A stretch of 64,000 nucleotides of DNA from an uncultured archaeon (GCA_964508365.1 CAZDTP010000018.1:113-64112); one strand, 5' to 3'. Shown: positions 1 to 48,054, counted from the first letter of the stretch. Made by a program: numbers and translations. The notes: generated by a model from the letters alone, not told the origin.

Positions 1-825
1 AAGAGCTAAGCAGAGTACAGAGGAATTAAATCCGGGTATTCCGTATTCGTGAGTATCAGTTATTTGTTTGATTATCATAATATCAACACTATTAATATTT
101 CCAGCTGTATCATTTACAAAAAACATAACCAGTAAATATCCTTGTGGTATAGTTTGCCATTCTGAAAATGGTAACCAAACTATGTTATTTCCCTGACTGA
201 CTACCCAGAAGTAACACTCATCTGAGCTATTGAATATAAACCAAAATTTATGGAAATTAACATCAGAAATAGATATATTAAAATCGGGGGGCTCCTCTCC
301 TACAATAGTTCCATTCAGAGGTGAATGTATGGCTATTATGGGTCGAATTGCATCTTTTATTATTTGCAAGTCTTTGAAACCCTCCTTACCAATAGAATTG
401 TTAGCATAAAATTTTATGACTACTATTCCTTCTGGTTGCATCTGCCATAAATTCATATCGATCTCTACTGAATTTCCCGGGAACGTTTTATTTTCACCAC
501 TTCCAATAATCATATACCATGTTTGATTGATTTCATAAGTATCGTTAACATTTATTTGAACTAAAGGGGGATTGTTATAATATGAATTATTTAAAGGTGT
601 AATTATGGTTATTTCGGGTAGAGTGGAATCTCCATTTTCCATGTGTATCTGAGATTTTAAAACCAGATTTTTATTTGATTCATTCATAATTTCCCAATTA
701 ATTTGATTACGGCTTAAATTATAATAGATGAGGGGTAGAAATGTGAGGAAACATATCAATATTATTAAATACCTTACTCTTCGTTTAAATTTAGGATCAA
801 AAAAGCTATTGCCTAAATCTGCCAT
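1..825 (-). CDS. Surface/secreted protein, C-terminus cut by window edge; N-terminal signal-anchor, Asn-rich beta-rich modules, PGF-CTERM-like tail
   Basis: Own translation of the minus strand from ATG (complement of 823-825): MADLGNSFFDPKFKRRVRYLIILICFLTFLPLIYY... The frame stays open to position 1. The last residues seen, ...THEYGIPGFNSSVLCLAL, resemble a PGF-CTERM sorting signal. Absent from the ORF track because there is no stop inside the window. Confidence 0.5.
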   Translation of the reverse strand, partial: MADLGNSFFDPKFKRRVRYLIILICFLTFLPLIYYNLSRNQINWEIMNESNKNLVLKSQIHMENGDSTLPEITIITPLNNSYYNNPPLVQINVNDTYEINQTWYMIIGSGENKTFPGNSVEIDMNLWQMQPEGIVVIKFYANNSIGKEGFKDLQIIKDAIRPIIAIHSPLNGTIVGEEPPDFNISISDVNFHKFWFIFNSSDECYFWVVSQGNNIVWLPFSEWQTIPQGYLLVMFFVNDTAGNINSVDIMIIKQITDTHEYGIPGFNSSVLCLAL

Positions 826-920
826 TATATTCCAAAATTTTCTACTATGTTAAGAAATATTTATTTCAGTTTTATTTAATTATATCTTAAATTTAAAAAG
901 TTAGTTTATCTTTAAAATTG

Positions 921-1003
921 GAAAATCGATTGAGCTGTTAGAAGTGAGATAGAGGTTGGGGTTGTGTTCCGGAGTTTTAACTCCACATTTTTCTATTTTT
1001 TCC
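921..1003 (+). repeat. Intergenic element copy E1 (purine-rich C-poor arm, core, hairpin, oligo-T)
   Basis: Core GGTTGGGGTTGTGTTCC at 954-970. Hairpin GGAGTTTTAACTCC at 971-984. T-rich run at 988-1001. Shares GAAGTGAGAT.GA.GGTT and TGTGTTCCGGAGTTTT(C)AACTCCA with E2. Confidence 0.6.
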
Positions 1004-1100
1004 TGAATTAAATTAATTTCGATCATATTTTTTCTTGGTTTTTAAATTTGCGATGAGAAATTTTGGTAATAAGAAATAAAAAAGGACAAACTGAGAAAAA

Positions 1101-1265
1101 TTGCCAAAATGCTTTCATTGTGGGGAACTCGGTTCTGATTTAACAACTTGTCATACTTGTTTGCATAGTTATTGTAAATTTCACATTGATCCCGTTGTTC
1201 ACGAGTGTAGCCTTATTCTTGAGTCTCGTAAGTTGCAGCACGAGTATAATGTAAGATTCCTATAG
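1101..1265 (+). CDS. AN1-type zinc-finger mini-protein (54 aa), TTG start
   Basis: Own translation: (M)PKCFHCGELGSDLTTCHTCLHSYCKFHIDPVVHECSLILESRKLQHEYNVRFL. It fits C-x2-C-x9-C-x2-C-x4-C-x2-H-x5-H-x-C, the full AN1 pattern. An in-frame TGA at 1092-1094 leaves TTG 1101 as the only possible start. Below the ORF-track size cut-off. Confidence 0.5.
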   Translation: MPKCFHCGELGSDLTTCHTCLHSYCKFHIDPVVHECSLILESRKLQHEYNVRFL

Positions 1266-1412
1266 TGAGTCATATTCGTATCACCTTTCTGTCCTTGTGG
1301 TTGAATTTCTGGAAACTCATTGAATATTTCAGTCAATTTTACTTGAAGTTTTTGTTTAAATTCTCTGGAAAAAGAATCAGATTCTTTTTCAAAAAATCAA
1401 TCTGGAGCTTCT

Positions 1413-1934
1413 TTAACCCGCAATATCAGAACCACAAGAGGGACAAATAGATATGCCCGTTTTAACGCTATTTCCACATTCTGGACAAACACTGCCAATT
1501 TGTAAGGTCTTGAAGAAATCTTCTTTTTTAATCTTTAGTTCAGCTAGCATTCCAGGAGATCTTTTTTTAGCACTAATATAACTTACTAGCAAACATACAA
1601 ATAAAAAGGTAGGAATGGGACTTGATGCGAGTAACCCAAATCCTGCGGCTGGAATATGTGATATAAAAACTAAGCCTAGAATAACTAAAGTTAGAATTAT
1701 CGGTAGTAAAATACTAAAAGCTATATAGTAACCACGTGGTGAGTAACTGTATTTTTTCATTTCATAATCATAATAACATGGCATGCAAAACTCATGCTGA
1801 GTAGCATATTGGCTCTCTTTGACACCATGAGTTATGCTAATTGGTTTTTTGCATTCTATGCATATCATCTTGTCACATTTTTCACATTTTGTTGTTGCTT
1901 CTCTATCTGGATGATAATAACATTTTAAACTCAT
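1413..1934 (-). CDS. Membrane protein with N-terminal B-box-like and C-terminal zinc ribbons
   Basis: N-terminus CYYHPDREATTKCEKCDKMICIECKK. Two central hydrophobic helices. C-terminus CPECGNSVKTGISICPSCGSDI. TATA-like TTTTTATA lies about 30 nt upstream of the ATG. Confidence 0.6.
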   Translation of the reverse strand: MSLKCYYHPDREATTKCEKCDKMICIECKKPISITHGVKESQYATQHEFCMPCYYDYEMKKYSYSPRGYYIAFSILLPIILTLVILGLVFISHIPAAGFGLLASSPIPTFLFVCLLVSYISAKKRSPGMLAELKIKKEDFFKTLQIGSVCPECGNSVKTGISICPSCGSDIAG

Positions 1935-2021
1935 ACTTATTTTTTAGACGCGCGTGTATAAAAATGTAAGTATTTCTTGAAAAAATTTTATTAAAGACAC
2001 AAGGCTTTATTCCCAAATACG

Positions 2022-2240
2022 GAGTTGAAAGTGAATCTTATAACTTCTTATTCGAAGACGGAAAGTAACAAGGTAACCAAAGTAAGGTTCAGGCTTAGAG
2101 CGGAAAGGTTTGTGTTGAGTGGTAGACGATGCGTGTTTGGAAAGTTTGTTTTGCGAAGTTGAGAGATAAGAAGTGAGATGGAAGGTTTGTATTTTGGTGG
2201 GAATGTGTTCCGGAGTTTTCAACTCCATACTTTTTTATTT
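2022..2240 (+). repeat. Intergenic element copy E2 (longest copy)
   Basis: Strongly C-depleted, G-rich arm at 2030-2200. Core GGTGGGAATGTGTTCC at 2196-2211. Hairpin GGAGTTTTCAACTCC at 2212-2226. Oligo-T at 2231-2240. GGAGTTGAAA at 2022-2031 is complementary to 2217-2226. Confidence 0.6.
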
Positions 2241-2278
2241 TATATTATCTTTTTATTCTAAAGAAGGCGGTGTTTTTT

Positions 2279-2404
2279 ATGGGTGAGAATGAGAACCAGT
2301 ATCGGCTGTTAGGTTCGTTGTATGTATTTTTAGGGCTTTGGTTCTTATTGTATTTTACAAATAGTAATTCAGTTAGTTTTTCTTTATTTGGGTATTATGG
2401 TTGA
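2279..2404 (+). CDS. Small single-pass membrane protein (41 aa), hypothetical
   Basis: Own translation: MGENENQYRLLGSLYVFLGLWFLLYFTNSNSVSFSLFGYYG. ATG is preceded by the SD-like GAAGGCGGTG with a 7-nt spacer. Lies directly downstream of E2. Below the ORF-track cut-off. Confidence 0.35.
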   Translation: MGENENQYRLLGSLYVFLGLWFLLYFTNSNSVSFSLFGYYG

Positions 2405-2505
2405 GGACCCGAGAAAACATCGAATAATGCCATGTGTTGATTTTCAATTTCTTTTGTCCACCATGATAAATACTTCCTAAATTTTGTAATGATAGTTTAA
2501 TTTAA

Positions 2506-3360
2506 TTAGGTTTTCAAGAACTCCATAATTAGTTTATTAATTTCCGGTGCCCTTGAGAGAGGAGAACTATGGCCTGCTTTGTCAATAACGGTTAGCTTGC
2601 TGTTTGGAATGACGTCATGCATTTCAATCATCGAATTACTCGAGGTTAATTTATCATGCGATGACGCAATTAATAAAGTTGGAGTTGTTATTTTTTTTAA
2701 ATCGTCTTTAGTTATCCGTTGTAAAAGAGCTGATGATTGATGTATTATATCTTGTGGTGTGAGAGGATTTAGGTTTTCGAACTTTATCAAGTCCTCAACC
2801 GACCATGACCCATGGAACTTTTTCTTGGGATTAGCTTTCATTTCTTTTCTAAAACCATGAGAAAACCCTAATCGTGCCCCATCCCAGAACGCCTGAACCG
2901 GATCTTTTTTCCGTGCTTCTAGGGTTTTGATATGATTATTTTTCAACATTTCTACGCCTTGATTGTCTGGTGCTCCCATGACGGTATTAATAAATATTAA
3001 CTTCTTTATTCGATTTGGATATTTGATTGCAAAGTTTTGTACAATAATTCCACCGAGTGACCACCCAATTATGTGAGATGTCTCAAGTTGGAGGTAATCC
3101 ATTAAACCTCTAACATCATCCGCAAGCATTTCGGCTGTATTTGGGATATGTGGTCGGTACGATTTTCCACCATTTCTATTATCAAAGCGTATCACCTTAA
3201 AATGTTCAGATAAAGGATAAAATTGAGCAATCCATCCTTCCTTATTACTACCAAATCCGTGAACCAAGATTACGGGCTCACCTTTCCCTCGTATTTCATA
3301 ACATATTTTAATTCCATTTACATCCGCAAATGTTTCCACCATGAAGGATCTAAACTCCAT
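2506..3360 (-). CDS. Alpha/beta-fold hydrolase
   Basis: HGFGSN oxyanion region, nucleophile elbow GWSLGG, C-terminal GH motif (DKAGHSS). Paralogous to 4824-5645. Confidence 0.8.
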   Translation of the reverse strand: MEFRSFMVETFADVNGIKICYEIRGKGEPVILVHGFGSNKEGWIAQFYPLSEHFKVIRFDNRNGGKSYRPHIPNTAEMLADDVRGLMDYLQLETSHIIGWSLGGIIVQNFAIKYPNRIKKLIFINTVMGAPDNQGVEMLKNNHIKTLEARKKDPVQAFWDGARLGFSHGFRKEMKANPKKKFHGSWSVEDLIKFENLNPLTPQDIIHQSSALLQRITKDDLKKITTPTLLIASSHDKLTSSNSMIEMHDVIPNSKLTVIDKAGHSSPLSRAPEINKLIMEFLKT

Positions 3361-3544
3361 TTAGCGTTTTATTTTTTATAGGTAATAAATAGAATTAAAC
3401 ATTTATGAAATAATGAAAAACAATAATGTTATTTTCTTTTAATCACCAATCTACTATTTAAATTCATGCATCGCTGATGAAAATTTTGCGCATGTTTTCG
3501 CAACTCTGCTATTTCGGCGTGATATATTATTGTTTTGGGGTAAT

Positions 3545-3650
3545 TGTTGGTCAATAGGTGAGGTGTATTATCGGACTTGAGGCGTGAGCTGAGCAGAGTT
3601 GTGGTGGGCGTGTGTTCTGGATTCTATTTTTTTTATTTTATGTTATTTTT
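3545..3650 (+). repeat. Intergenic element copy E3 (hairpin degenerate)
   Basis: G-rich arm ggtgaggtgtattatcggacttgaggcgtgagctgagcagagttgt. Core GGTGGGCGTGTGTTCT at 3603-3618, followed by T-runs at 3627-3650. Confidence 0.55.
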
Positions 3651-3691
3651 TTAATTCACGAATTAGGTTAATTCTTGAAATTTTGTATTGA

Positions 3692-3832
3692 ATGGTAAAT
3701 TCAAAGTTTGATTTGAAAGGAATTTTAGTTAAAAAAGATAAGATTGAATTTACTTCTGAAATCGTTGAGAAAGTATATAAGTTCGTTCCATCTGAGCAAA
3801 AATATCTTATTAATAGTTCTGGATATATCTAA
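3692..3832 (+). CDS. Small hypothetical protein (46 aa)
   Basis: Own translation: MVNSKFDLKGILVKKDKIEFTSEIVEKVYKFVPSEQKYLINSSGYI. Its start region is homologous to a decayed copy downstream of E5 (about 6984-7085), where ATG is AGG and stops interrupt the frame. Coding status is uncertain. Confidence 0.25.
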   Translation: MVNSKFDLKGILVKKDKIEFTSEIVEKVYKFVPSEQKYLINSSGYI

Positions 3833-3897
3833 ACAAAAAGGAAAAAAAAAAAGAAGTTATTATTTATACTTCAATATTGCATTTTTTCAATAAATTT

Positions 3898-4395
3898 TTA
3901 AGGAAGATATGTTTGAATTAACAACGTACTTTCCTCAATCTTATTATTCTGGAAGTTTCCCTGTATGCTTATAGTCGCAGTATGAAATCCTGGTAAAATT
4001 GTATCTATAGCCATTTGAAGTGTAACCGACCCACCTATAGCTAGATGATCACTAGAAAAGGTTACCTCTGGCGAAACAGGACTCGTTATTACAAATCCGT
4101 CTAGAACAAATCTGAATATAATAGCAGCCTCTCCAATATCAACTAATGTAGCGTATGTATTAAAAAGACCATAGACCGATTCTCCTGATTTTACCGTAAA
4201 ATTAATTGTAATTGCGTTGATAGGAATATCTGTGTAAGTTGGATTTGTGAAATGGACTCCTGAATCATATACAAACAAAGTTTTCTGAATACCACTATTT
4301 TGTTCCTGAGGGAAAATTAGAGAAATTACTCCTAACCCTAAACCCGCTATTCCAATAATAAGGGCAAAGATAGCTAACCCTTTTCCTTTTACCAC
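3898..4395 (-). CDS. Signal-anchored extracellular protein, hypothetical
   Basis: N-terminal hydrophobic helix GLAIFALIIGIAGLGLGVISLIF, followed by a beta-rich domain with no recognisable motif. Confidence 0.55.
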   Translation of the reverse strand: MVKGKGLAIFALIIGIAGLGLGVISLIFPQEQNSGIQKTLFVYDSGVHFTNPTYTDIPINAITINFTVKSGESVYGLFNTYATLVDIGEAAIIFRFVLDGFVITSPVSPEVTFSSDHLAIGGSVTLQMAIDTILPGFHTATISIQGNFQNNKIEESTLLIQTYLP

Positions 4396-4639
4396 AATAG
4401 ATTACCTCTTTCATTTTGTTTTATTATATTTATTTTTTTATCTTTTTAATTATCTTCCGCATCTGATGTATTATAAATTTTTTTGTATTTCTGTGTATTG
4501 AATTGTTATCAGACTCATTGGTATAATTATAGGGATTCTTATATGTTCTGTATTTGCCAATCTATTTGCCACATTAATCCCGTGAAAAAATTAAGTTAAA
4601 TTATTTTTTTTTCATTTTATGGATTCACTTTGACTGAAT

Positions 4640-4735
4640 CGAGTCTGTGTGAGTGGAAGGCGATAAAAGATTTGTTTCTAGATTGAAGGGTGGGAGTGTG
4701 TTCCTGAGTTTCTACTCCCTATTTTCTTTTTTTTT
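4640..4735 (+). repeat. Intergenic element copy E4
   Basis: Core GGTGGGAGTGTGTTCC at 4689-4704, an identical 16-mer to E5. Hairpin GGGAGT 4692-4697 / ACTCCC 4714-4719. Oligo-T at 4722-4735. Confidence 0.6.
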
Positions 4736-4823
4736 AAGTATGATTAAATACAAGAAGAAATTCAGGTTTCCATAAATCATTTAATATAATTCTTATTTAC
4801 TCATTTGTTAAAAAAATAAATGG

Positions 4824-5645
4824 GTGTTGGGAATACCAATATTCAAACACAATGATATTGAAATCAATTATATGATGAAAGGAAAAGGGGAGCCTTTAGT
4901 ACTCGTACATGGATTTGGTACAAAGTATCAAGGCTGGAATTTTCAAATCTCCTATTTTGAAAAAAGAATGAAAGTTATCGCATTAGATAATCGTGGAGTA
5001 GGAAAAAGTTCGCGACCAAATTATCATTATACAATGGATATGTTCGTGGATGATATTAAAGCTCTTTTAGATCATCTAAACATTCAAGATAAAATTCATT
5101 TATGTGGTATTAGTTTGGGAGGAATGATCGTTCAAAATTTTGTATTAAAATATCCAGAGAAAACAAAAACTTTAACGCTTTGTGCTACGTCAGCTTGTTA
5201 TGACCCTGGACCTTTATTTAAGAGTTTTGAATTAATAGAAGAATTGAATTTAGAAGAACGAGTTGAAGCTTTATTACCTTTTACACATTCAAGAGCCTTT
5301 ATTAGGAAATTAAAAAACGATCAAAAGTTATTTGATTCTTTTAAAGAAGATACCCTTTTTATTACTCCGATGAAGGATCCTACACGCTTTCAAGATTACA
5401 TGAATCAAGCTAATGCTATGTATACACATGATACACGTGAATTTTTAAATAAAATTAGAATTCCTACTTTAATAATTGGGGCAAATAAAGATAGATTAAT
5501 ACCTTATCCCCATCAAGAATTCTTGCATGAAAAAATTCTAAACTCACAATTAGAAATTCTCAAGGGTTGTGGTCATGCTTTTACTATAGAAATGCCTGAG
5601 AAAGTAAATGAGCTAATGTGGAATTTTATAAAAGACAATATGTAA
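4824..5645 (+). CDS. Alpha/beta-fold hydrolase
   Basis: HGFGTKYQGW, nucleophile elbow GISLGG, C-terminal CGH. GTG start as in the ORF track. Confidence 0.8.
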   Translation: MLGIPIFKHNDIEINYMMKGKGEPLVLVHGFGTKYQGWNFQISYFEKRMKVIALDNRGVGKSSRPNYHYTMDMFVDDIKALLDHLNIQDKIHLCGISLGGMIVQNFVLKYPEKTKTLTLCATSACYDPGPLFKSFELIEELNLEERVEALLPFTHSRAFIRKLKNDQKLFDSFKEDTLFITPMKDPTRFQDYMNQANAMYTHDTREFLNKIRIPTLIIGANKDRLIPYPHQEFLHEKILNSQLEILKGCGHAFTIEMPEKVNELMWNFIKDNM

Positions 5646-5715
5646 TTAAAAAAACCTAGTTATCTTTATTTTTTTTTATTATCATAATAAGAGAGATAAT
5701 ATAACTTGAAACCAA

Positions 5716-6633
5716 TCAGGCAAAACTCAATTCATAGAGTTTTTGATTTGAACTCATATCAGATTTTACATTTTTGACTACTTCAAATAAATCATCTGAA
5801 AGCTTTCTCATTTCATTTTTTGCAGCGTTTGCATGTCCTGATAGGGCGATTCTTCCAAATTCAGAGTTGAGAAGTTTAACCAGTTTTCTTTTAATAATAG
5901 ATGATGGGAACCAAGTAAACAGTTTAAATTTCTTGGGAAGAATAGGAATACTTAGCTCCTTTAACGCTTTAATGTTCTCTCGAAATCCTTGGAGTGCTAA
6001 GTCAAGGAGTTCTAAATCTGTTCCGAGCGTTTTATTTCGTTTCTTTGCGGCATAACCTCCCATCGCTAATGGACTTATAAAAGCTGCATGACTTTTTAAC
6101 CACGCATCAATATTTTCGCTCAAATCAACTTTAATTCCTGAATTTGTGAATACTTTTTCAATATTTTTTATTCGATCACTTATTGTACCATCAAGTTCCC
6201 CAAGATATAAAATAGCATCATCTACATAAGCCGCGATTATTTTATGACCTTCTCGATATCCCCCTGGACCTCCAAATCCAAGAAGGATTCTACTCTTTTC
6301 AATGCTATTTAAATATTCAGCCGCTCCTGAAGGATTATTTCCTGTAAAAATGATAATAGGACTAATATTCTCCTTTAGGATCGGTAAGATTTGACTTACT
6401 TGTTGCCGTTGCATGATTACTAAGACAATATCGTAATAATCATCTTTCTGCAATTCATCTACAACATTGACAGCTGTTTCGTATACTTTATGAAAAATGT
6501 CGTCTTGAACTATAAGCCCATGCTTCTTTAAATCTTCTAAACGCTTTCCTCTCGCAAGGATGGAAACATCATTCCCACCACTTTTAAGCTTATAGCCAAA
6601 AATGCTGCCAATTACTCCCGCACCATATATCAA
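5716..6633 (-). CDS. 2-dehydropantoate 2-reductase (ketopantoate reductase, PanE/ApbA) family oxidoreductase
   Basis: N-terminal Rossmann motif IYGAGVIGS and ApbA-like length and layout. TTG start. An in-frame upstream K-I-K-I-L suggests the real start might be a non-canonical codon a few residues earlier. Confidence 0.6.
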   Translation of the reverse strand: MIYGAGVIGSIFGYKLKSGGNDVSILARGKRLEDLKKHGLIVQDDIFHKVYETAVNVVDELQKDDYYDIVLVIMQRQQVSQILPILKENISPIIIFTGNNPSGAAEYLNSIEKSRILLGFGGPGGYREGHKIIAAYVDDAILYLGELDGTISDRIKNIEKVFTNSGIKVDLSENIDAWLKSHAAFISPLAMGGYAAKKRNKTLGTDLELLDLALQGFRENIKALKELSIPILPKKFKLFTWFPSSIIKRKLVKLLNSEFGRIALSGHANAAKNEMRKLSDDLFEVVKNVKSDMSSNQKLYELSFA

Positions 6634-6859
6634 TATTTTAATTTTTTTCCACCAAACATATAGAATTTCTTTAGCTAAATATAAATAATTGAATTTAGTA
6701 TTTAAATTTAGTCACGCCTAGATTATTATGAAAAATATTTAAAAGAATAATCCAAACGTTTTCATTCATTAATATCCATGAAGATACTTAACATTTATAA
6801 TCATTTCTCTTATCTAAAATAATGATAAAATATATAATTTAGAGTAGAAAGATTTTTAT

Positions 6860-6942
6860 TGAGCGACAGCAGTAAATGGGGCGAAATGAAGAGGCATTAT
6901 GAGAAGTTGGGAGGTGGGAGTGTGTTCCGCTTTATTTTTTTT
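6860..6942 (+). repeat. Intergenic element copy E5 (no hairpin)
   Basis: Sequence gagaagttGGGAGGTGGGAGTGTGTTCCgc. Core at 6913-6928, directly followed by tttatttttttt at 6931-6942. Contains a perfect SD-like GGAGGTG. Confidence 0.6.
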
Positions 6943-7164
6943 AAATATTATATTTTTCTATCTCAATAATTAAATTATATCATAAAATTTCGTATTAAAG
7001 GGTAAATTCCGAGTCTAACTGCTAGGAAATCCACCCAAAAATCAAAATGAATTAGATGAATCCCTTAAAATTAAAATCTGAAAAAATAGATTTAAATTTT
7101 TTTGGATGATATTAAGAGTTAAACAATTAACTTTTATATATCAAAAGGAAATTATTATACAATT

Positions 7165-9243
7165 ATGGAAATCTATAAAAAACATTTAAGTAAGTATTAT
7201 TCAGAACTGATCTTAATTAGCATAGTATTTCTCTTCTTTTTTCAGCAGATAACTGAATTCGTAGAGTCTATTTATCTATTAAATCTTATAGAAACAGATA
7301 TTAATGAAAATATAGCGGCGATATTATTTTTATTAACTCCGATAGTTTTACTGTTTTTTAAAAAGAAGTTTTCTAGTAAATTAATGGTAATCTTTGGGGA
7401 AATAATGATAATATGTAGGATTTTTCAGCCACTATTTGATACACAAATAAAAATGATAATTATTGGGGTAGGAGTTGGATCGTTTATGATTTTTTTGCCT
7501 GTATATCTTCAAAAAAAATCTTTGGAAAATAATGAAAAGGGTGGATTAATGTTAGGAGTTAGTTTAGGTTTCGGATTAGCACTTTCGATTATATTAAGAA
7601 CGCTTGGATCTTCAGTTGATTTATCTCTAACAGTCGGATTTCAATGGATAGGATGGATTCTTGCGGCTATAGCCGCAATAATGATGATAAACTTAGCAAA
7701 TCCCGATAGGATAACCGTTAATTCAGACAAAATAAGCAATACAGGAAAGATTGGAAGTAAATGGAAAATTTTAGCACTGTGTATGGGGTTATTTAGCGTT
7801 TTATTTTTGTACTATTTTGCGTTTAGTAGTCCAGCCGTTATTGTAAGATGGACAGAAGGAGATTTCGTAGGAATTACGTCCATTCTCATATTAGTAATAA
7901 CTGGTTTTATCATAATTGCTATTTTAAAGCCTGAGTTGATTAGTAAAATTCCTCTTAAATGTATTTTATTTTGGAATGGATTGTTTGTTTTAATGATGAC
8001 GCTGACTATCGGACTCAATCAAATTCCGTTTCCTTTTATTTCCTCATACCCCTTTTATGCTCCTGAAACAACTATATTTCATCAAATCGTTCTATACGTA
8101 ATGCTTTTACTCTCTCCGATTACGTTAATTGACGTTGTGATTTTAATAAGGGAATTATTTAGAAGTAGACCGTCAACTCGAAAAATGGGGGCAGCATTTT
8201 TTGCATCCGCGTTGTTTTTCATTCTTATGATTTTTTCGGCAGTATTTACCACTACTTGGGATTATATTCCGATTGTAGGTCCACTATTCGAAGACATGAT
8301 TTGGCTTGTATTATTAATCGGCGGAATAATAATAATTTTACCAATCCTTTTAGTCAAGAAAGAATCTTTGATTTTTTCGAAAATTTCGCGAAATAATATA
8401 AATAATAGGTATAAAAGCGTTATTATTATAGGAGTTATTGCTATAGGGACAATTCTGGGAGGGTTTATTGTTGAATTACCTAGGGTACAAGCCCCCACTG
8501 ACATTAATACTCTTTCGATTCTCACATATAATATTCAACAAGGTGCTGATGATCCTGGAAACATGAATCTTGAAGGTCAATGGGCGGTTATTAAGAATCT
8601 AAACCCGGACATCGTTGGTTTAGAAGAATCGGATACTGATCGAATCGCTAATGGAAATAATGATTATGTACGCTATATTAGTAATACTCTCGGATATTAC
8701 TCATATTTTGGACCCAAAACTGTTACTGGAACTTTTGGAATAGCGTTATTATCAAAATATCCTATTTTAAATGCTCGTACGTTTTATATGGAATGTGTAG
8801 AAGAACAAGCCGCAACAATTTGGGCTCAAATCGTCGTAGGTCCGAATACCTTCAATATTTTTGTCACTCACCTTGGAAATTATAGAAATACAACTAAAGG
8901 AGATAGAACGCAAATAGTCCAGCAAGAAAATATTTTAACAATAACTGCCGGAAAAGAAAATGTAATCTTAATGGGTGATTTTAATTTTGACCCCAATTCA
9001 GAACAATATAATATTACTATTGCACAACTATATGATTCTTGGGAATTAGTATCTGATGCTAATCCTGCAAACGCCATAGTCGATCCTATTATGCCCGGTG
9101 AACGTGTAATTCCAGAAGAAAGAATAGACCACATTTTTGTGTCTCACCATTTGAATGAATCAGTGATATATATTCGTTATACTGGGGGATTTGAGTCTGA
9201 CCATCCCGCTTTATATGCGAATTTAGATCTAACAAGTATTTAA
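7165..9243 (+). CDS. Polytopic membrane domain fused to a C-terminal endonuclease/exonuclease/phosphatase (EEP) domain
   Basis: About 440 aa with more than 10 hydrophobic helices. EEP motifs follow: LTYNIQQG, IVGLEE, LMGDFNF, DHIFVS, SDHPA. Confidence 0.7.
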   Translation: MEIYKKHLSKYYSELILISIVFLFFFQQITEFVESIYLLNLIETDINENIAAILFLLTPIVLLFFKKKFSSKLMVIFGEIMIICRIFQPLFDTQIKMIIIGVGVGSFMIFLPVYLQKKSLENNEKGGLMLGVSLGFGLALSIILRTLGSSVDLSLTVGFQWIGWILAAIAAIMMINLANPDRITVNSDKISNTGKIGSKWKILALCMGLFSVLFLYYFAFSSPAVIVRWTEGDFVGITSILILVITGFIIIAILKPELISKIPLKCILFWNGLFVLMMTLTIGLNQIPFPFISSYPFYAPETTIFHQIVLYVMLLLSPITLIDVVILIRELFRSRPSTRKMGAAFFASALFFILMIFSAVFTTTWDYIPIVGPLFEDMIWLVLLIGGIIIILPILLVKKESLIFSKISRNNINNRYKSVIIIGVIAIGTILGGFIVELPRVQAPTDINTLSILTYNIQQGADDPGNMNLEGQWAVIKNLNPDIVGLEESDTDRIANGNNDYVRYISNTLGYYSYFGPKTVTGTFGIALLSKYPILNARTFYMECVEEQAATIWAQIVVGPNTFNIFVTHLGNYRNTTKGDRTQIVQQENILTITAGKENVILMGDFNFDPNSEQYNITIAQLYDSWELVSDANPANAIVDPIMPGERVIPEERIDHIFVSHHLNESVIYIRYTGGFESDHPALYANLDLTSI

Positions 9244-9547
9244 AAATATCTTTTTTTTTTTTTAATTTAATTCTAAAAAAAACTTATACTTCAACTAATG
9301 AAATATAAACTCTCAATAATTTTATTGCTCGATTTTTGATATAAAATCAATTTCTTTCTTTTTCTCTTTTAATTAGTAGCTTTTCTAACATTTCTCTCCT
9401 AAAAAATTAGGCGTGGAAGGATATTAATTCAGCTAATATTGAAAATCAGTTATGTTAAAAAATAAAAATAAAAATAAAAATAATGATAAAATAAAAAAAA
9501 AAATGAAATATTTTATTCCATTACATCTAATGCTTATTTTTTAGACT

Positions 9548-10579
9548 TTAAATATATCTTTGGCTTATATTTGTTTGAAAATATTGTTCTTGCCGATCAG
9601 AATTGCTGCTTCCTCCTCTTTTTGAAACGATATAAAACTGAACTAACGAATTTTCGTGGACTAGGGTGTTGCCTCTCCATTTTTTATCCTGCGACTCAAA
9701 TTCGACCACTTCACCAAGTCCTATACCTTTTCTTTCGGAAAAATTCAACTTTAAACTTTGTAATGCCTTTATCAGGTGCTTATCGTATTGACTTGACCCT
9801 TCCTTATAGGATTTATCTTTAAATCTCAGCGATTCGATCGCAAAGGCTTTAAGGATGTCGTTGTTCATTGTTTCCCATACTTTAGGATTTGCGTAAAACT
9901 CTATACCAATAAACTCACCGTTGATAAAGGTTGCTATTCCGCATTGATTTTCTTGATTTTTAAAAGAATTCACTATCTCGTCTGTTTCTTTATCAATATT
10001 TTCTGTCATTTCAAGATAGCTTTGAGATGGGGCAATTGTATTGCTATATTTCATTTCAGTTCTATAAGCTTGGATTTCGTTCCAAACTGAACCCTGACCT
10101 GCCGAAGATATCGCTTCGTAGGCAACATTAGGATGTAATCTTGTATTAGAAGATTTAAATCCTTTTCCTTTTCGATAATTCCATCTCGACTGTTCGACGC
10201 ACTTAGCTGGAACGGTATATTTTTGTTCCATAGGACCGTTATTGCCACCAGATAAGTTTTTTTTTCCTCCAACAGCCAATAGGATTGGTTCCCATATTGT
10301 TCTATCTTGTTTTCCGCCATGGACTGTTACGCCGAAAGGGATCAACACTTGTTTATCGCTATTATTAATTACCTCTAATTGACTAACGGTATCTGTTTCA
10401 TTTATACTTATTAAGCCAAGGTCTTCAGCTTCTTTAACGCTAATAAAATCTAAGGTTTTACCCTTATAGATAATCGGGATAACTGTCATATTACCATGAG
10501 ATTGAGGTTTTCCAAGTTCTAAAATTTCTAAAGGATTCTCAAACAGCATTTCTACCATTTGAACACTTACATTTTTCAT
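9548..10579 (-). CDS. Conserved hypothetical protein (343 aa)
   Basis: Long clean ORF. Its start overlaps the stop of the upstream wHTH gene by 4 nt (ATGA). No motif I can name with confidence. Confidence 0.55.
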   Translation of the reverse strand: MKNVSVQMVEMLFENPLEILELGKPQSHGNMTVIPIIYKGKTLDFISVKEAEDLGLISINETDTVSQLEVINNSDKQVLIPFGVTVHGGKQDRTIWEPILLAVGGKKNLSGGNNGPMEQKYTVPAKCVEQSRWNYRKGKGFKSSNTRLHPNVAYEAISSAGQGSVWNEIQAYRTEMKYSNTIAPSQSYLEMTENIDKETDEIVNSFKNQENQCGIATFINGEFIGIEFYANPKVWETMNNDILKAFAIESLRFKDKSYKEGSSQYDKHLIKALQSLKLNFSERKGIGLGEVVEFESQDKKWRGNTLVHENSLVQFYIVSKRGGSSNSDRQEQYFQTNISQRYI

Positions 10580-11004
10580 AATTTACTTTCCTCCTTTTTT
10601 TTCTTATTAACACTTTCTTCTTTATGCTCTTTTTCCACCATTACTTCTTCGTAAAGGGGGTCTACAAATTGGTTTACGACGTCTTTACCGTTTTTAGTAA
10701 GTTCGACGCCATAGGAGATTTTTAATTTTCCTTCCTTGGTCACTTTGTTAACTATTGCTCCTTTCAATTTTGAGGCTTCCTCCTGAGAAACTTCCATTTT
10801 CTGCGTTTTGATTATTCCCCCTCTCTTTAAGGCGCTTATGTGATAATTAATGTTTTGACGGTCAACTTCTAATTTATTTGCTAAGTCTATTGGTCTTTGT
10901 GAGTTTGTAGATAACTCTCTTACTATATCAACCCTCGTGGGATTTCGAAACACAAGACCGACCTTTTCGAAAATAGGTTTTTTTTTTTCTTTCTTTTCAG
11001 GCAT
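10576..11004 (-). CDS. Winged helix-turn-helix (ArsR-like) transcriptional regulator
   Basis: RVDIVRELSTNSQRPIDLANKLEVDRQNINYHISALKRGGIIKTQ is a typical ArsR/wHTH recognition region. Lysine/glutamate-rich tails. Confidence 0.6.
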   Translation of the reverse strand: MPEKKEKKKPIFEKVGLVFRNPTRVDIVRELSTNSQRPIDLANKLEVDRQNINYHISALKRGGIIKTQKMEVSQEEASKLKGAIVNKVTKEGKLKISYGVELTKNGKDVVNQFVDPLYEEVMVEKEHKEESVNKKKKEESKL

Positions 11005-11188
11005 AAAATGATCACATTTTTTTTACTGTAAAAACTATTTTTACTATAAAAACAATTATTACTTTTCCTATTTAAATATATGCGTTGAATTTAGTTTCTT
11101 CTTAAGTTAAAATAGAATGCTATTAAGCAAAAAGGAAGAGTTTTAGGCGTCCTTGGCAAGAAGACTAATTATTAATTAAAATAGTAGG

Positions 11189-11410
11189 TTAAATTTTGAT
11201 GCTAACTTGTTCTTGAGTTAAAAATTTCGAAGGATTTAAACTTCTTCTTGGGGAAGCTAAGGTTGTTTCTCGTAATTGTTCTTGATTTGCTTCAATTTTG
11301 AAATTTGCTCTTTTTAAAAATAGGTTCACAATGTTTAATTCGTTTAATGTTAATGTTAAAGATTGTAGAAATTTAGGATGACGAAAATTGTTCCAGTCGA
11401 TATTACCCAT
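11189..11410 (-). CDS. Hypothetical 73-aa ORF
   Basis: The only ORF in a 612-bp spacer. No motif, so it may be non-coding. Confidence 0.2.
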   Translation of the reverse strand: MGNIDWNNFRHPKFLQSLTLTLNELNIVNLFLKRANFKIEANQEQLRETTLASPRRSLNPSKFLTQEQVSIKI

Positions 11411-11616
11411 AATACTATTGTTGTGATCTGTTTAAGATATAAATACAAAGACTATGAGAGTTTTCTATTATTTTTACCGAAAAGAACATAAATATCTTAT
11501 TTCGAATAATTTAACTTAATTCAAACTTTTTCTAGCGCAGTTAGTTACCCTTTATCATATCAATCTCGTAAAGTTGTTTTTATAGATTAAATCTTTAAAA
11601 ATCCACAAAGGTTTGC

Positions 11617-13095
11617 ATGAAAATGGAAAGTGATAACATAATCGATGTATTTTTACACCCTAAGTCCGTAGCTGTTATTGGCGCTTCAAAAAAATTAACA
11701 AAAGGCGGATTCCGGATTGCTACCAACCTTATTACTAACAATTTCAAAGGTAGAGTTCATCTTGTAAACCCTAATGCGAAAGGAAAGCTCTACGATATAG
11801 ATTTTAAAAGGAGTATTTTAGAAATCGAGGACGAAGTTGACATTGCAATCTTTTACGTTCCAAATCGACTTATTCCAGACATCTTAAGGGATTGCGTGAA
11901 AAAAGGAGTAAAAGGAGCGATAATAGAAGCATCGGGTTTCGAAGAAGTAGGAGAGAAAGGTCTTCAATTAAAAGAAAAAATAGTTGAGATAACAGACAAT
12001 TTTACTAAATTAAGGATTGTTGGTCCTAATTGTATGGGTCTTAGCACCATCAATGGAGACAGCGATAGTAAAGAAAAGGAAGGTTTTTTTTCTGGATTTG
12101 GTGTTTTTTCTACCTATAAGAGAGGTAATATTGCGTTAATTAGCCAATCTGGGATGCTAAATGGCGGTTATTTAATGCATATAATGACAAAATATCCGAA
12201 TCTAGGATTTCGATATGCTTGTTCAATCGGAAACAAGATGGATTTGAGTGAAATTGAATTTCTGGAATATCTAATAAAAGACGATACTGTAAATGTTATA
12301 GCAATATACCTAGAATCGTTTAAAGACTCAAGAAAATTTATTGAACTATGCAAAAAAGCTAGGTCTATGCCAGATAAGACTATTATTCTGCTTAGAGGGG
12401 GAATTACGCCTCAAGGTCAAAAAGCAACTAGAAGCCACACAGGTTCTTTAGCAGAAAATTCAAATTTAATTAACGGGATCGTAAAACAATCAGGAGTAAT
12501 CAATGCCAACAATTTTTACGAGTTATTTCAATATGCGCGCACCTTCTCGTTAATGTACTTGTCAGGTAAAGAGCTCCCTAAAAAGGGTAACGCTTCATTT
12601 GTAGCGGGCTCCGGAGGTGCAGGAACGATTACAACGGATCTTACGGTGAAATATGGTTTAAAATTTCCTGTTCTTGGTGAGAAAACCTACGCTGCTCTAG
12701 TTGAAGTGTTTCCCGAGTGGATGCCTCCAAACAACTTTGCGTTTGTGGATATATGGCCTGCAATGGAAAAAGCGATGATGAATAATGTAAAACCCGAGGT
12801 TGTAACATCTCAAGTGTATGAAGCTTTATTTAAAGATCCCAACATTGAAGGTATCTTCACCATGATGTTTTGCTCTCGGCAATTTAGATTTATGAATAAT
12901 GTGGACGATATCATAGCCAACGCAAAACAATCATCAAAACCAATATTTTTTTGGTTAATTGGTGAGGCAAAGGAAGTTGAGAGAGTCTCCCAAAAATTAG
13001 CTGTGCATCATCTACCTAATTTTCCCAGCTTAGAAGAGATGGTTAAAAATTTCAGTATTTTAGTACAGAAATCAAAGAATATGAATGTGTCTTAA
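11617..13095 (+). CDS. ADP-forming acyl/acetyl-CoA synthetase alpha-type protein (CoA-binding plus SCS-like flavodoxin domains)
   Basis: FLHPKSVAVIGASKK..VNP CoA-binding start. GPNCMG, ISQSG and a phosphohistidine-loop-like SHTGSLA. Confidence 0.7.
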   Translation: MKMESDNIIDVFLHPKSVAVIGASKKLTKGGFRIATNLITNNFKGRVHLVNPNAKGKLYDIDFKRSILEIEDEVDIAIFYVPNRLIPDILRDCVKKGVKGAIIEASGFEEVGEKGLQLKEKIVEITDNFTKLRIVGPNCMGLSTINGDSDSKEKEGFFSGFGVFSTYKRGNIALISQSGMLNGGYLMHIMTKYPNLGFRYACSIGNKMDLSEIEFLEYLIKDDTVNVIAIYLESFKDSRKFIELCKKARSMPDKTIILLRGGITPQGQKATRSHTGSLAENSNLINGIVKQSGVINANNFYELFQYARTFSLMYLSGKELPKKGNASFVAGSGGAGTITTDLTVKYGLKFPVLGEKTYAALVEVFPEWMPPNNFAFVDIWPAMEKAMMNNVKPEVVTSQVYEALFKDPNIEGIFTMMFCSRQFRFMNNVDDIIANAKQSSKPIFFWLIGEAKEVERVSQKLAVHHLPNFPSLEEMVKNFSILVQKSKNMNVS

Positions 13096-39961: not shown

Positions 39962-40051
39962 GCCTTTGTGGCTTAGTCGTAGAGCGACTGATTCGTAAAA
40001 TTTTCGATTCGAATCATCAGTAGGTCGGGGGTTCAAATCCCCCCAAAGGCT
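39962..40051 (+). tRNA. tRNA-Thr(CGU) with canonical 18-nt intron (37/38)
   Basis: GCCTTTG TG GCTT AGTCGTA GAGC G ACTGA TTCGTA[AAATTTTCGATTCGAATC]A TCAGT AGGTC GGGGG TTCAAAT CCCCC CAAAGGC T. Intron at 39998-40015. BHB central helix TTCG/CGAA, bulges TAA and TCA. Confidence 0.85.
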
Positions 40052-40055
40052 CTCG

Positions 40056-42538: not shown

Positions 42539-45500
42539 TTAAAAGAAATTTGATAATTTTTGTTGCTTTATTTTAGGATTATTCGTAAGACTTTCAACAT
42601 ATTCTTTTACTAGTTCCATTCGTTGTATAGTATAAGCGTCCAAATTAAAATCTCTGCTAATTTTTATAGCCTTTGGTATATATTTTTCAATTCCACCGCG
42701 GTTGACTGTCAATATAACATTGCCTCCACATTTTGGACACTTTCCCGCATTTGAGAGGGGTGGACGTCTATATTTCTCGTTACATTTCACGCACCTAAAA
42801 TGCTGTACAGAAAATTTTCTTAGGTTTCCCATTATATCGGGATTAAAGTGTGTTGTCAAAATCTTCTCAGCAACATTTTTATCGTTGACTGCTTTTATAA
42901 TTTTAGCTAGGTGCAGTTGCGCGTTTATCTTTTCTTCCATACTTGCATAGGTCTTATACGCTGTTGTTGTAGGACCGTTGTTAATATCGTTGGTTGGTAT
43001 GTTGAAACCCAGATTTTCGTACTGCGCTTGTGTCCCTAACCGGCTTTTCACTAAATACATTTTCTTTTCTATCTCAAATGGCATAAGATATTCCTGTGTA
43101 GCTGTATAGAACTCTAAAGGATATTTAAATAATGTATCGATATTATGAGCTTCACTATCGATTTCATTAGGGTCTAATATCGAGGATATCACCAAAGTAG
43201 CGTCCATTCTACCTCCTATTTTGCTTGGTAAATAATACCTCGAAAAATTTAACAAAGGATCTAAAAGAAGCATAATCCCATCTTCATCCCCATCGCAGTT
43301 TCGACGTTTGGCTGCATGCCAAAAGGGGTGGGCGTAGATCGAACGTGCCGGCGAAAAGCCAATGATTCTACCGACAATTCCCGCGCTTGTATGAGGAGCA
43401 AGTCCTACAACTAAATGCCCAATTAAGTCTTCTCTCTTAGTAACATTGTAAAATTTGTCAAGATTATAAAATAATTCTAATTCATCATCAATGAAATTAG
43501 CGATTTTAATAAAATATTTAGCGCAATCGTCTGAAAGAATGACATCTTGCACATTTAGCTCTACAATCTGATTTTCGTTATTTAATTCGTTAGATTTATA
43601 ATCAAATTCATATCCCAATTCATTTAACCTGTTTACAGGAGTTGTAATTTCTATAGGTTTGAAATGAGTTAATGGAATATCCGTTGCGTCGTATCGAATT
43701 TCTGCGGTTTTGTATACAAGTAACTCATGCTTAGCCCTAAGAATTCCCTTCATTAGCGGCTCAGGGACTTTAAATTGATTTGTTAATCCAATAATTCCTT
43801 TAAATTTGTTTGGTAAAGACATATTTAAAGAGTTGAGTACTGTTTTTGAATAATTTTGCATATTAAAAGAAGCTTCCTTAGAGAGCTTTAATAAGCCTCC
43901 GCATCGCTGGCACTTTTCTTCGTTTTTAGGGTAGTACATATTACATTTTGGACATATTTTTTGAAATTCAGTATGAGATCCACATTTAGGACATAGATTA
44001 AATGGTGTAATGGATGCACAATCTGGACATTTCTTTCTACATATATCAATTTTAATTTTTCCCAGATCTATCGCCTTCTGCACTAATCTTGTATTACCAA
44101 CTTTATCACTGAGAGGAAATAAGCTTTGAATGCCTTTCATGCTTTTTCTTTCAGATTTCTCAGGGCGTCCCATGCGAGTTCCCATAAAGTAAGGAGCTTT
44201 ATTTCTAATTTCAATGGGAGAAATGCTTGAAAAATAATTGAAAACGTTGTTTTCATTTTTCCCATCAATAAATTCCTTATGGCTTAAATTGAATATAGTT
44301 TCGTATATTTCTGTCGTTGCATCGTCTAGAATAATACAATTTTCATTAACTGTATGAGGAACAAATGCTCTTTCTAAAATATCCTTAATGGCAGTTCTAT
44401 TTTTTAAATTTATTTTCTTAGTCTTATTATCATAATCCTCGGTTAAAGCTTCTCTTAAAGTACTCAAATCACCTACAGAAATGTTCCCCCAAAAATCAGT
44501 GTACTTAGGATGCAAGGGCACAGAAAATTTATTTGCCAAATTGATCGCCTCTTTTGCTGAGGGAATGTTATTAAAAGGATCTTCGATAAATTTATTCAAT
44601 TCCTTGCTCGATCTTTGTTCAATTTTTAATGCTTCCTCTAACTCTAAAGCCCACCATTCTTCAACATAACCAGATGGAACCAGTTTATGGTTGTTTTCGG
44701 AAAATTCCCCAAATCCAAAGAGAATATCTCCTAGAAAAAGAATTTCTTTTATGTTATGAAAGATCTCTGTTGCCTTTTTTGCGCTCGAAATCCTTACCAC
44801 GTTTCCATTTTTGAGTTTTACTATAGGTGGTTCTATCGAGGACACAGGACAAATACTGGTACTTTTTCCAGGTCTTTCAATTCTCAATTGTGTTCCAATT
44901 GCTATAAAACCATCTAAAACAGACATAGTGGCTGGGTGCAATCCCCCCGCAGCTAATCCAGTATTGCGCGATCTTCCATAACGTATTCTATGGCCGCCAA
45001 TTTTGGACGGATGACTAAAAACTGGTCTACCAGCGATAATATCAGAAACATATTTAGAGTTAGGTGTAATTTTAATAGTAGATGTGCTCTCTAAATCATC
45101 TGTTTTCTTTACTTTATCTTCCTTTTGTGCGATATCTTTTAGTTTTCCTAACCAATTCCAACCTTCTAATTTCATGTTTTGAGCAATTTTAAGAAGTTTT
45201 GGAGCTTTAAGTAATATCCCATCGTTTAGTACCAAACAAGCACCTCCTCGAATTTTGTTCGTTTCGATTCTTGGTAATCCTCTAAACGCTGATACTTCTT
45301 CATCTTCAGTAGAGTCTCCGTTTATTTCAACAGGTAAATGCTCTATAGCGTATCGAATTTCATCGTTAGATGATGGATATTGTAAATGAACTCTCCGATC
45401 GTATAGTTTGACCTCTTCTACATATCGTCCAATTTCCCCTTCAGTGGCTACATATTTTGGAATATTTGATCGTTTCCTAACATAATCTGCAATCAAAACG

Positions 45501-45973: not shown

Positions 45974-46241
45974 AATACTGTCCGTACGTTGATAAGATAA
46001 TTAATCTTATTGTTGAAAATTAGGTTACATAATGTAAAATTTTTAGGTTCAAAATAAAATGTATTATTAATAGGTTAGTTGAATCGTACTATTTGAATTT
46101 GAAGAGATTTAAAGTTTTTGATAAAAGTATGAGAATTAGTATGCCCTCCTAATTATTATAAACATTGTTTAATCATTAATAATAAACAATTTATCTTTAT
46201 CTTTTAATAAATATAATAATTCTATCAAGGGAGATTCAGAC

Positions 46242-48020: not shown

Positions 48021-48054
48021 ATTCTTCTGCTTTTAATTGTATTAGGTGCTTTAA

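Follow-up and report, generated by a model that had tools for sequence, protein, structure and literature searches.

How do Asgard archaea gain and shuffle their genes? Among the prokaryotes known so far, these archaea are most closely related to eukaryotes, and they have unusually large accessory genomes. The question is raised in concrete form by a 64,000-nt stretch of DNA from an uncultured archaeon (GCA_964508365.1, CAZDTP010000018.1:113-64112; hereafter the window). The window is chromosomal DNA of 32% GC from an Asgard archaeon of the Lokiarchaeal lineage (NCBI name now Promethearchaeota). Its first 7 kb carry five copies of a short element, here called E, which a first-pass annotation placed in the spacers of five consecutive divergent gene pairs and proposed to serve the plus-strand genes. 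We conclude, with a probability of roughly 60%, that the E copies are the junctions at which recombination joins the modules of a hypervariable cassette array, itself anchored at the rRNA operon, and that they are also terminator-like on the plus strand.

The copies in the window share a 16-nt core, G[GT]TGGGNNTGTGTTC[CT], which occurs five times, always on the plus strand and once per spacer (955-970, 2196-2211, 3603-3618, 4689-4704 and 6913-6928). A pattern search allowing up to three mismatches returned six matches, compared with 0.16 expected from shuffles of the window. The sixth match, on the minus strand at 21871 with three mismatches, was dismissed as noise. A profile hidden Markov model (HMM) built from about 200 copies of other contigs detected exactly these five across the 64 kb. 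E1 (939-1001, +) has a short 5′ part before its core, followed by a hairpin at 971-984 (GGAGTTTTAACTCC) and a T-rich tail (HMM E=8.5e-10). E2 (2083-2242, +) is the long form, in which a trailer-like 5′ part of about 113 nt precedes the core, a hairpin at 2212-2226 and a T-run. E3 (3569-3640, +) has a weak 5′ part, a variant core (...TTCT), no hairpin and a T-run at 3626-3634 (HMM E=0.0026). E4 (4628-4737, +) has a 5′ part of about 60 nt (TGTGTGAGTGGAAGGCGAT...GATTGAAGG), a GGGAGT...ACTCCC pairing after the core and a T-run to 4737. E5 (6862-6943, +), whose 5′ limit is uncertain, consists of a G-rich lead-in, the core and a T-run without a hairpin (HMM E=1e-5). A short hairpin thus follows the core in E1, E2 and E4, and a T-run is present in all five; E1, E2 and E5 were matches in a terminator scan.

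To determine how widespread E is, we searched genomes and metagenomes. An exact-pattern scan of one genome per species gave at least 118 stretches. Among the genome matches listed, eight are low-GC stretches, all from seven Promethearchaeota genome bins, and the others are single matches in unrelated, mostly GC-rich bacteria. In the bins, too, the copies are clustered and co-oriented; one cluster, in JAUVNS010000015.1, has eight within 8 kb. A stricter pattern run against metagenome contigs matched at least 118 marine-sediment contigs of about 31% GC, and the family statistics given here rest on the matches listed. A relaxed search within those contigs found at least 222 distinct copies. The consensus is (GA)GG-TGGG[AG][GT]TGTGTTCCGGA, followed in about half of the copies by GTTTTTACTCCA, a 5-bp hairpin, and last by the T-run. 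Read 5′ to 3′, an element is therefore a G-rich, C-poor part of variable length, an invariant 19-nt core (GGTGGGNNTGTGTTCCGGA), an optional 5-bp hairpin (GGAGT-TTTT-ACTCC) and a T-run. One compensatory change (GGAGA/TCTCC) was seen in the hairpin, along with variants compatible with G-U pairing. A scan of IMG/VR for a virus or plasmid origin gave a single match, in a contig of 72% GC, which we attribute to chance. Literature searches, including searches with the core sequence itself, returned no description of the element, the site or the mechanism, which is not proof of absence.

Two further observations concern the family as a whole. The plus strand of all five elements in the window, and of copies elsewhere, is 34-42% G and 6-14% C, compared with 15.5% and 16.9% for the window, and RNA structure offers no explanation. 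One could speculate that such an asymmetry matters for recombination, for instance through R-loop formation on a heavily transcribed trailer. The arrays in the bins lie at contig ends (L054 and L007, JAUVNS010000015.1 96-105.3 kb; L053, JAHQWJ010000062.1 168-169.7 kb; L044, JAHQWH010000088.1 1-8 kb; related contigs are given here as L numbers), suggesting that the arrays or an adjacent rRNA operon break assemblies.

The polarity of E follows the array and not the neighbouring genes. In 72 of 73 contigs with several copies, every copy is on one strand, and among the 292 cores that the HMM detected in 126 contigs only one contig has both strands. That contig, L217, has cores at 7365 and 8023 (-) and at 10021 (+), and it may represent an inversion or the meeting of two arrays. 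The genes flanking 135 copies show every combination of orientations: 47 are (+,+), 31 (+,-), 31 (-,+) and 26 (-,-). The run of divergent pairs is peculiar to the array in the window. Two independent assemblies found as contigs encoding the window's 173-aa protein, L001 (JGI) and L002 (Logan), are identical to the window and continue the array leftwards with two further co-oriented copies, so that at least two copies lie left of the window. One of these, E0, follows a 71-aa zinc-ribbon gene, 17 nt after its stop codon, and the gene on the other side has its 3′ end towards E0. E0 thus lies between converging genes, and the divergent-pair rule fails at the very next spacer. Nor is the array strictly periodic, with core-to-core spacings of 1241, 1407, 1086 and 2224 nt. 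The five divergent pairs with one element per spacer described in the first-pass annotation are therefore real within the window, but do not hold as a rule beyond it.

Co-oriented E copies bound modules, and these modules are exchanged between strains. The 105 unique core-to-core stretches that we collected have a median of 959 nt, and 70 of them encode exactly one ORF of 60 aa or longer, which is on the plus strand relative to E in 45 and on the minus strand in 25. When blocks of at least 85% identity between contigs reach an E, 57 out of 63 end there and only six pass through. If a module has a homologue of at least 80% identity elsewhere, the neighbouring modules are almost always unrelated. 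The module from E3 to E4, for example, is present end to end in L195 and L226 (90.7% over 1-1087 of the unit, u3) with both neighbours different, and is also found in L223 (88%) and L164 (87%). Homology of the window to L226 (96.4%) begins at the E2 core. Similarly, L001 and L197 are homologous (95.5%) from the E0 core onward, their upstream sides are unrelated, and the hairpin has a compensatory change. Two pairs of contigs, L149 and L182 as well as L195 and L234, share modules that are 99-100% identical in different contexts, which shows the exchange to be recent. Assembly chimeras are unlikely to account for this, since the shared stretch is at most about 45 nt, many of the assemblies were made at k=141, and the order in the window is reproduced in the independent JGI and Logan assemblies.

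The modules carry accessory-type cargo, as the first-pass annotation had supposed. They encode Ras/Roc/Arf-type GTPases, alpha/beta hydrolases, GNAT and SAM-dependent transferases, TPR, LRR and zinc-ribbon proteins, and membrane proteins. Defence-type domains are also present, namely TIR, PIN, Schlafen AlbA_2, an AbiEii-like AAA_21 with DUF4435, and OLD-like ATPases, and the arrays may double as defence islands. Units and flanks of L060 (2604-4589) and of other related contigs include OLD-like AAA_15, AAA_21 with DUF4435, Schlafen AlbA_2, TIR_2 and PIN_4. The annotation's view of the locus as a cassette-like accessory island and not core genome is likewise borne out, as stretches between cores recur with different neighbours and the remaining 57 kb of the window are of housekeeping type with no element copy detected by the profile HMM.

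Where between two modules does the sequence switch? We compared pairs of copies that share one flank but not the other. Where the upstream flank is shared and the downstream flank is not, the two copies have the same base at position -1 in 94% of pairs (background 68%) and at position +4 in 88% (background 58%), while position +17 matches no more often than background. Where the downstream flank is shared, 100% of pairs match at position +17 (background 50%) and 52% have the same hairpin sequence (background 11%). As the variable positions -1 and +4 go with the upstream flank, and position +17 and the hairpin with the downstream one, the switch lies in the core, inside the invariant TGTGTTCCGGA. 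One case shows it directly. L182 has a full core, whereas L149 has unrelated coding sequence up to ...GATGATA, then CCGGAGTTTTTACTCC, and then 962 bases identical to those of L182.

The repeat is also the trailer of the rRNA operon. A search with E2 gave a sharp 5′ limit at window positions 2081-2085 (AAGGTTCAGGCTTAGAG) in about half of the matches. The longer copies run on through GTGTGGCATTCGAAAGAGGAGCTCAA into a GC-rich part, which Rfam assigns to the 3′ end of archaeal 23S rRNA. In L158 the archaeal large-subunit (LSU) rRNA model ends at 2142, a trailer spans 2143-2267 and the core starts at 2268, so the long form of the element is the 3′ trailer of an rRNA operon. This rRNA trailer aligns to E2 over 2083-2239 (E=1.2e-20), and the rRNA trailer also aligns to E4 (E=6e-8) and to E1 at 939-1003 (E=1e-4). 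Judged by these alignments, E is the same sequence as the 23S rRNA 3′ trailer in Lokiarchaeia, with its core, hairpin and T-run at the expected termination point of the operon. The 5′ starts of the copies cluster. About 100 copies consist of the core only, and others start about 35-45, 100-110 or 135 nt upstream of it. Still others start 25-40, 134, 184 or at least 420 nt inside the 23S gene, and a few are without the left 5-16 nt of the core. Isolated fragments of the 23S 3′ end (134, 184 and at least 420 nt) also occur within arrays far from an rRNA operon, in L175 (2498-2631 and 4276-4459) and L215 (2219-2637), and one of these has no core after it.

An array that begins at an rRNA operon is found at the same chromosomal site in a relative of the window. 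L188 and L129 tile one 18.4-kb contig, Ga0255055_10001315. In this contig, read in the orientation of the window, the 3′ end of the 23S gene is followed by 14 co-oriented copies spread over 14.4 kb and then by the genes for ARPP-1, an HTH protein and a CoA ligase. Its right flank is 90.6% identical to positions 9487-12000 of the window, and the shared ARPP-1/HTH flank places the two arrays at the same site. From this conserved flank, the array in the window is the right-hand part of a hypervariable region that, in at least one relative, starts at the rRNA operon. The AN1-type zinc-finger ORF fragment that follows E1 fits this anchoring, because a full-length homologue directly follows the rRNA-trailer copy of E in L193, L129, L229 and L158. 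Among strains with 23S ends of 83-97% identity, the modules that follow the trailer copy differ.

How might such an array be shuffled? Recombination between two co-oriented cores would loop out a module as a circle with one E. The circle could then recombine with any E and reinsert, and co-orientation would be kept automatically, whichever enzyme acts. The agent might be a recombinase encoded elsewhere, or the exchange might proceed by recombination through the short shared sequence. On the plus strand, the core, hairpin and T-run would terminate transcription, presumably as they would for the rRNA operon, and so insulate the modules from each other. The shape of a terminator fits by sequence and E stands at the end of the rRNA operon, but its orientation is independent of neighbouring genes. 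A search for a recombinase yielded one GIY-YIG nuclease-like protein, in L044, and one DprA homologue, neither of which recurs beside arrays. The former is a 688-aa protein (within L044 1349-5345) with a GIY-YIG domain (E=1.5e-8) and repeated helix-rich modules, encoded beside a HerA/FtsK-like ATPase and just upstream of two element copies. It was seen once and could be a free-standing homing-type nuclease. More tentatively, E may belong to a Lokiarchaeal gene-capture system distinct from integrons, whose site is the terminator and trailer of the rRNA operon with its 19-nt core, and which has its own recombinase or an RNA-templated route. Modules of about 1 kb, with eukaryote-like Ras GTPases, defence genes and enzymes as cargo, would be inserted, excised and exchanged at this core. 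An RNA-templated route acting on transcripts that end at the terminator would explain the attached, 5′-truncated 23S fragments.

Several results weigh against E copies as recombination junctions. The contigs were picked for an exact core, so the invariance of the core is partly by construction. At the right end of the array in the window (9243-9487) there is no recognisable core. Copies bear from 9 to at least 420 nt of the 23S 3′ end, which simple core-to-core exchange does not explain. In left-truncated copies, the junctions to unrelated sequence lie 0, 2, 4, 6, 10 or 11 nt into the core; they are thus not the product of a single precise cleavage site, and the process is not always precise. 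No clean insertion or deletion of a single module was found between collinear contigs, five candidates being due to paralogy or internal matches, and none of the related contigs is circular with a terminal overlap. No integrase, transposase or reverse transcriptase (RVT) was present in the Pfam results for the window and short related contigs, which cover 30 proteins individually and about 170 more through top-25 family summaries only and are not exhaustive. The graded 5′ extents together with the imprecise left junctions keep alive both an RNA-templated origin and plain recombination through short homology.

A retro-copy origin takes up the first of these. The E copies, perhaps with whole modules, would be DNA copies of transcripts ending at the E terminator, with the abundant rRNA precursor as the main template. 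Reverse transcription from the 3′ end with early stops would give 5′ truncation, and later recombination between copies would give mosaics. The common 3′ end and the graded 5′ extent (hairpin only, part of the core, core only, longer, and at least 420 nt into the 23S gene) are as such a process would leave them. So is the junction in L204, which coincides exactly with the end of the E4 T-run and hence with the point at which a transcript would stop, and so is the occurrence of either gene orientation in modules, as expected from any plus-strand read-through transcript. However, the 5′ ends fall at few block boundaries and are not evenly spread, near-universal co-orientation is unexpected for random retro-insertion, and complete modules recur with cores at both ends. 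No reverse transcriptase was seen in the Pfam results examined and no pair of filled and empty sites was found, and we consider this origin unlikely. E could instead be merely a strong terminator or 3′-trailer module copied around an accessory region, with no role in mobility and with mosaics arising by general homologous recombination, for which any dispersed repeat can serve as a substrate. Its core, hairpin and T-run shape and its position at the end of the rRNA operon agree with this, as do copies right after the stop codons of plus-strand genes (E0 and L060; the median distance from an upstream plus-strand gene is 70 nt), the imprecise left junctions, and the lack of a recombinase in the Pfam results examined. 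Yet E opposes its neighbouring genes as often as it matches them (26 (-,-) and 31 (-,+) of 135 spacers), and every housekeeping operon in the window does without it. A sharply bounded core in at least seven species beside variable flanks suggests sequence-specific recognition, and some process must generate a stretch of 14 kb with about one repeat for each gene, all co-oriented. A passive repeat is in our judgment an unlikely account.

The proposal of the first-pass annotation, that E is a cis-regulatory element (an upstream activating site, leader or attenuator) co-regulating the plus-strand ORFs downstream, fares worse. It is true that each E in the window precedes a plus-strand ORF by 70-240 nt, that at least the 41-aa and 46-aa ORFs among these are conserved, and that E together with the hydrolase gene is retained in L124 at 68%. 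Against it, 57 of 135 copies have a minus-strand gene downstream, 31 of them between converging genes, and no plus-strand gene lies downstream of E0. The terminator-like T-run at the end of E, in many copies preceded by a hairpin, would be expected to stop transcription coming from E before it reaches the next ORF. The annotation had held that relatives keeping these genes without the elements would refute its proposal, and this is the case for E4: L204 has the 273-aa hydrolase gene with its promoter, including 75 nt upstream and a TATA-like box, at 94% identity and no E4, the homology ending exactly at the end of the E4 T-run. The occurrence of all orientation combinations around E excludes a promoter-proximal or gene-linked regulatory role, and we regard regulation by E as highly improbable. 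The same applies to E as a family of small non-coding RNA genes or as a tiny ORF (a Shine-Dalgarno-like GAGGTG, then NTG TGT TCC GGA, encoding MCSG...), for which there is very little probability. The copies are islands richer in G+C within AT-rich spacers and end in T-runs, and in 205 of 211 copies the TG is preceded by G, T or A. Nevertheless, no conserved promoter precedes the variable 5′ ends, folding z-scores of -1.6 to +1.25 across both strands give no thermodynamic signal relative to shuffled sequence, and RNAalifold on 36 long copies gave -2.8 kcal/mol with no covarying or compensatory pairs. Rfam found nothing at its gathering score or at E-values up to 5. The mini-ORF was rejected, as CTG stands at its start in six of 211 copies, two copies stop after three codons, the length ranges from 3 to 27 codons, and nothing is conserved past codon 4. 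Coding on the minus strand (PEHTPT-like peptides, and a 73-aa ORF placed across E2 by a gene caller) was rejected because of stop codons, the lack of start codons and non-synonymous variation. We also discarded likenesses to C/D-box RNAs, SECIS elements, group II introns, retrons, DGRs, ORB/origin boxes, dif/Xer sites and uptake sequences; either the motifs, symmetry or partner genes are absent, or E differs in being confined to islands and one-directional.

Recombination junctions bounding small modules recall several known systems. Site-bounded gene cassettes are a kind of array that is already known; it is the site and mechanism of the E arrays for which no description was found. The closest architecture is that of integrons (above all chromosomal super-integrons with VCR-type repeats). 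These, like the E arrays, have co-oriented conserved repeats and modules of about 0.5-2 kb, mostly with one ORF. In both, one end of the repeat is conserved and the rest varies, and exchange takes place in the conserved part, so that the repeat is split between two modules. Module order varies between strains, and the cargo is of accessory and defence type. Integron arrays with canonical attC sites have been reported in about 8% of Asgard genomes, including attC clusters without an integrase (PMC9668308). Unlike attC, E has no R''-L''/L'-R' inverted repeats, no GTTRRRY core and no folded single strand. The C-poor plus strand rules out the inverse core RYYYAAC, no inverted repeats are associated with E, and GTTCCGG, the candidate crossover sequence, does not fit GTTRRRY. 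No IntI (Phage_integrase) match was present in the Pfam results seen for the E arrays, and a third of the single-gene modules are reversed. E is homologous to the trailer of the rRNA operon, its array can start at the 23S gene instead of attI, and its left junctions are imprecise. With attC structure and core motifs absent and IntI not found, E should not be filed as an integron.

The arrays also resemble the tandem accretion of islands at the 3′ ends of RNA or housekeeping genes. SCCmec composite islands are bounded by copies of the rlmH 3′-end integration sequence, and islands at tRNA and tmRNA genes are comparable. As with E, each of the direct, co-oriented repeats is a fragment from the 3′ side of the target locus; the repeats have this 3′ side in common and differ in 5′ extent, and successive insertions stand beside an intact target, which here is the 23S trailer. 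The E modules differ in being 10-50 times smaller, without an integrase in the Pfam results seen, up to 14 in a row and about one per gene. Their target is a non-coding rRNA trailer and terminator, and their left junctions, at 0-11 nt of the core, do not share one precise crossover. Archaeal oligo-T and bacterial intrinsic terminators share with E a short GC-containing hairpin and/or a T-run, and E stands at the end of the rRNA operon and sometimes right after stop codons. Unlike them, E has 19 nt of conserved sequence before the hairpin, lacks the hairpin in half of its copies, ignores the orientation of genes and is absent from the core operons of the window. Eukaryotes have retro-elements derived from or tied to structural RNAs, such as rRNA-derived SINEs and the rDNA-specific R2 elements. 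Like 5′-truncated retro-copies and SINE-like elements, E has a common 3′ end, a graded 5′ extent and a part derived from the 3′ region of the large-subunit rRNA. E differs in having no reverse-transcriptase partner that we saw, in being clustered and locally strictly co-oriented, and in having flanks that recombine independently. The neisserial dRS3, REP/BIME and Acinetobacter pdif repeats are bacterial and either palindromic or alternating in orientation. They are, like E, short conserved intergenic repeats acting as recombination or integration sites that bound small modules. E in contrast is non-palindromic save for a central TCCGGA, one-directional and archaeal. E does not resemble MITEs and small DNA transposons: it has no terminal inverted repeats, its flanks recombine independently and no filled and empty pair was found.

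A repeat-bounded array of this kind is a concrete, testable route for gene flux in Asgard archaea. It is abundant in sediment Lokiarchaeia, anchored to rRNA, and carries Ras-like GTPases, defence proteins and hydrolases as cargo. If a dedicated enzyme recognises the 19-nt core, this would be a new site-specific recombination system and possibly a genetic tool for Asgard archaea. An RNA-templated route, if that is what operates, would be relevant to the long-standing problem of the origin of integron-type cassettes. The core motif also offers a simple marker of hypervariable regions and of likely assembly breakpoints in Lokiarchaeal bins.

The genes and ORFs named in the first-pass annotation are all present in the window at the coordinates and on the strands it gave. 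The leftmost unit begins at E0 and enters the window with the N-terminal 275 aa (1-825, -) of a 292-aa protein that has a weak Ig-like match. The unit from E1 to E2 holds the AN1-type zinc-finger ORF, an N-terminal fragment of 54 aa (1101-1265, +), and, as cargo, a 173-aa zinc-ribbon membrane protein (1413-1934, -). Relatives of the AN1 protein are 311-312 aa long and homology to them ends at 1252; from this comparison the truncation is taken to be a second recombination scar inside the unit, away from the core. The unit from E2 to E3 encodes a 41-aa transmembrane ORF (2279-2404, +) and a 284-aa alpha/beta hydrolase (2506-3360, -). The small ORF travels with the E2 core, with 90% identity in L226 and about 50% in L156, L126, L240 and L239, and members of its family often stand immediately after an element. 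The complete unit from E3 to E4 (3603-4688) encodes a 46-aa ORF (3692-3832, +) and a 165-aa membrane protein (3898-4395, -). The 46-aa ORF is conserved at the protein level (89% in the closest relative and about 50% in several others). Conservation makes it probable that both of these short ORFs, of 41 and 46 aa, encode real proteins.

In the unit from E4 to E5 are a 273-aa alpha/beta hydrolase (4824-5645, +), with its own predicted promoter region at 4747-4823, and a 305-aa protein resembling reductases of the ApbA/PanE family (5716-6633, -). The two alpha/beta hydrolases (2506-3360 and 4824-5645) are paralogues on opposite strands in neighbouring units, with a 58-nt inverted match of 72%, and the same family recurs as cargo in the arrays of L054, L124 and L234. 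The TATA-like boxes reported before two of the minus-strand genes are both visible: TTTTTATA ends 17 nt ahead of the ATG of the gene at 1413-1934 and TATAAAAAATA starts 22 nt ahead of the ATG of the gene at 2506-3360. After E5, the last unit is strain-specific and encodes a 692-aa membrane protein of the endonuclease/exonuclease/phosphatase family (7165-9243, +). The gene is not at the corresponding position in Ga0255055_10001315. The right edge of the variable region lies at 9243-9487, between this gene and ARPP-1, and the last unit is unlike that of the relative (L188 3514-4008). The variable array ends at a conserved flank (9476-11004, -) that encodes ARPP-1 (9548-10579) and the HTH protein (10576-11004). 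L188 and L164 match this flank at 79-91% identity, beginning at about 9464-9487.

To the right of about 9.5 kb, the window looks like core genome. Its housekeeping genes include those for an unsplit RNA polymerase subunit B (RpoB), both PolD subunits, Cdc6/Orc1, RtcB and a proteasome ATPase, and several Ras-family GTPases are also encoded. A tRNA-Tyr (GTA) at 39962-40052 is the sole Rfam/ARAGORN match in the window, and its length of 91 nt indicates that it contains an intron. The Cdc6/Orc1 gene (48735-50057, -) adjoins the genes for the large and small PolD subunits (region 42539-50057), and the cumulative GC skew has its minimum near 54-55 kb of the window. The position of Cdc6/Orc1 beside PolD and the skew minimum at about 54-55 kb suggest that a replication origin may lie in that region.

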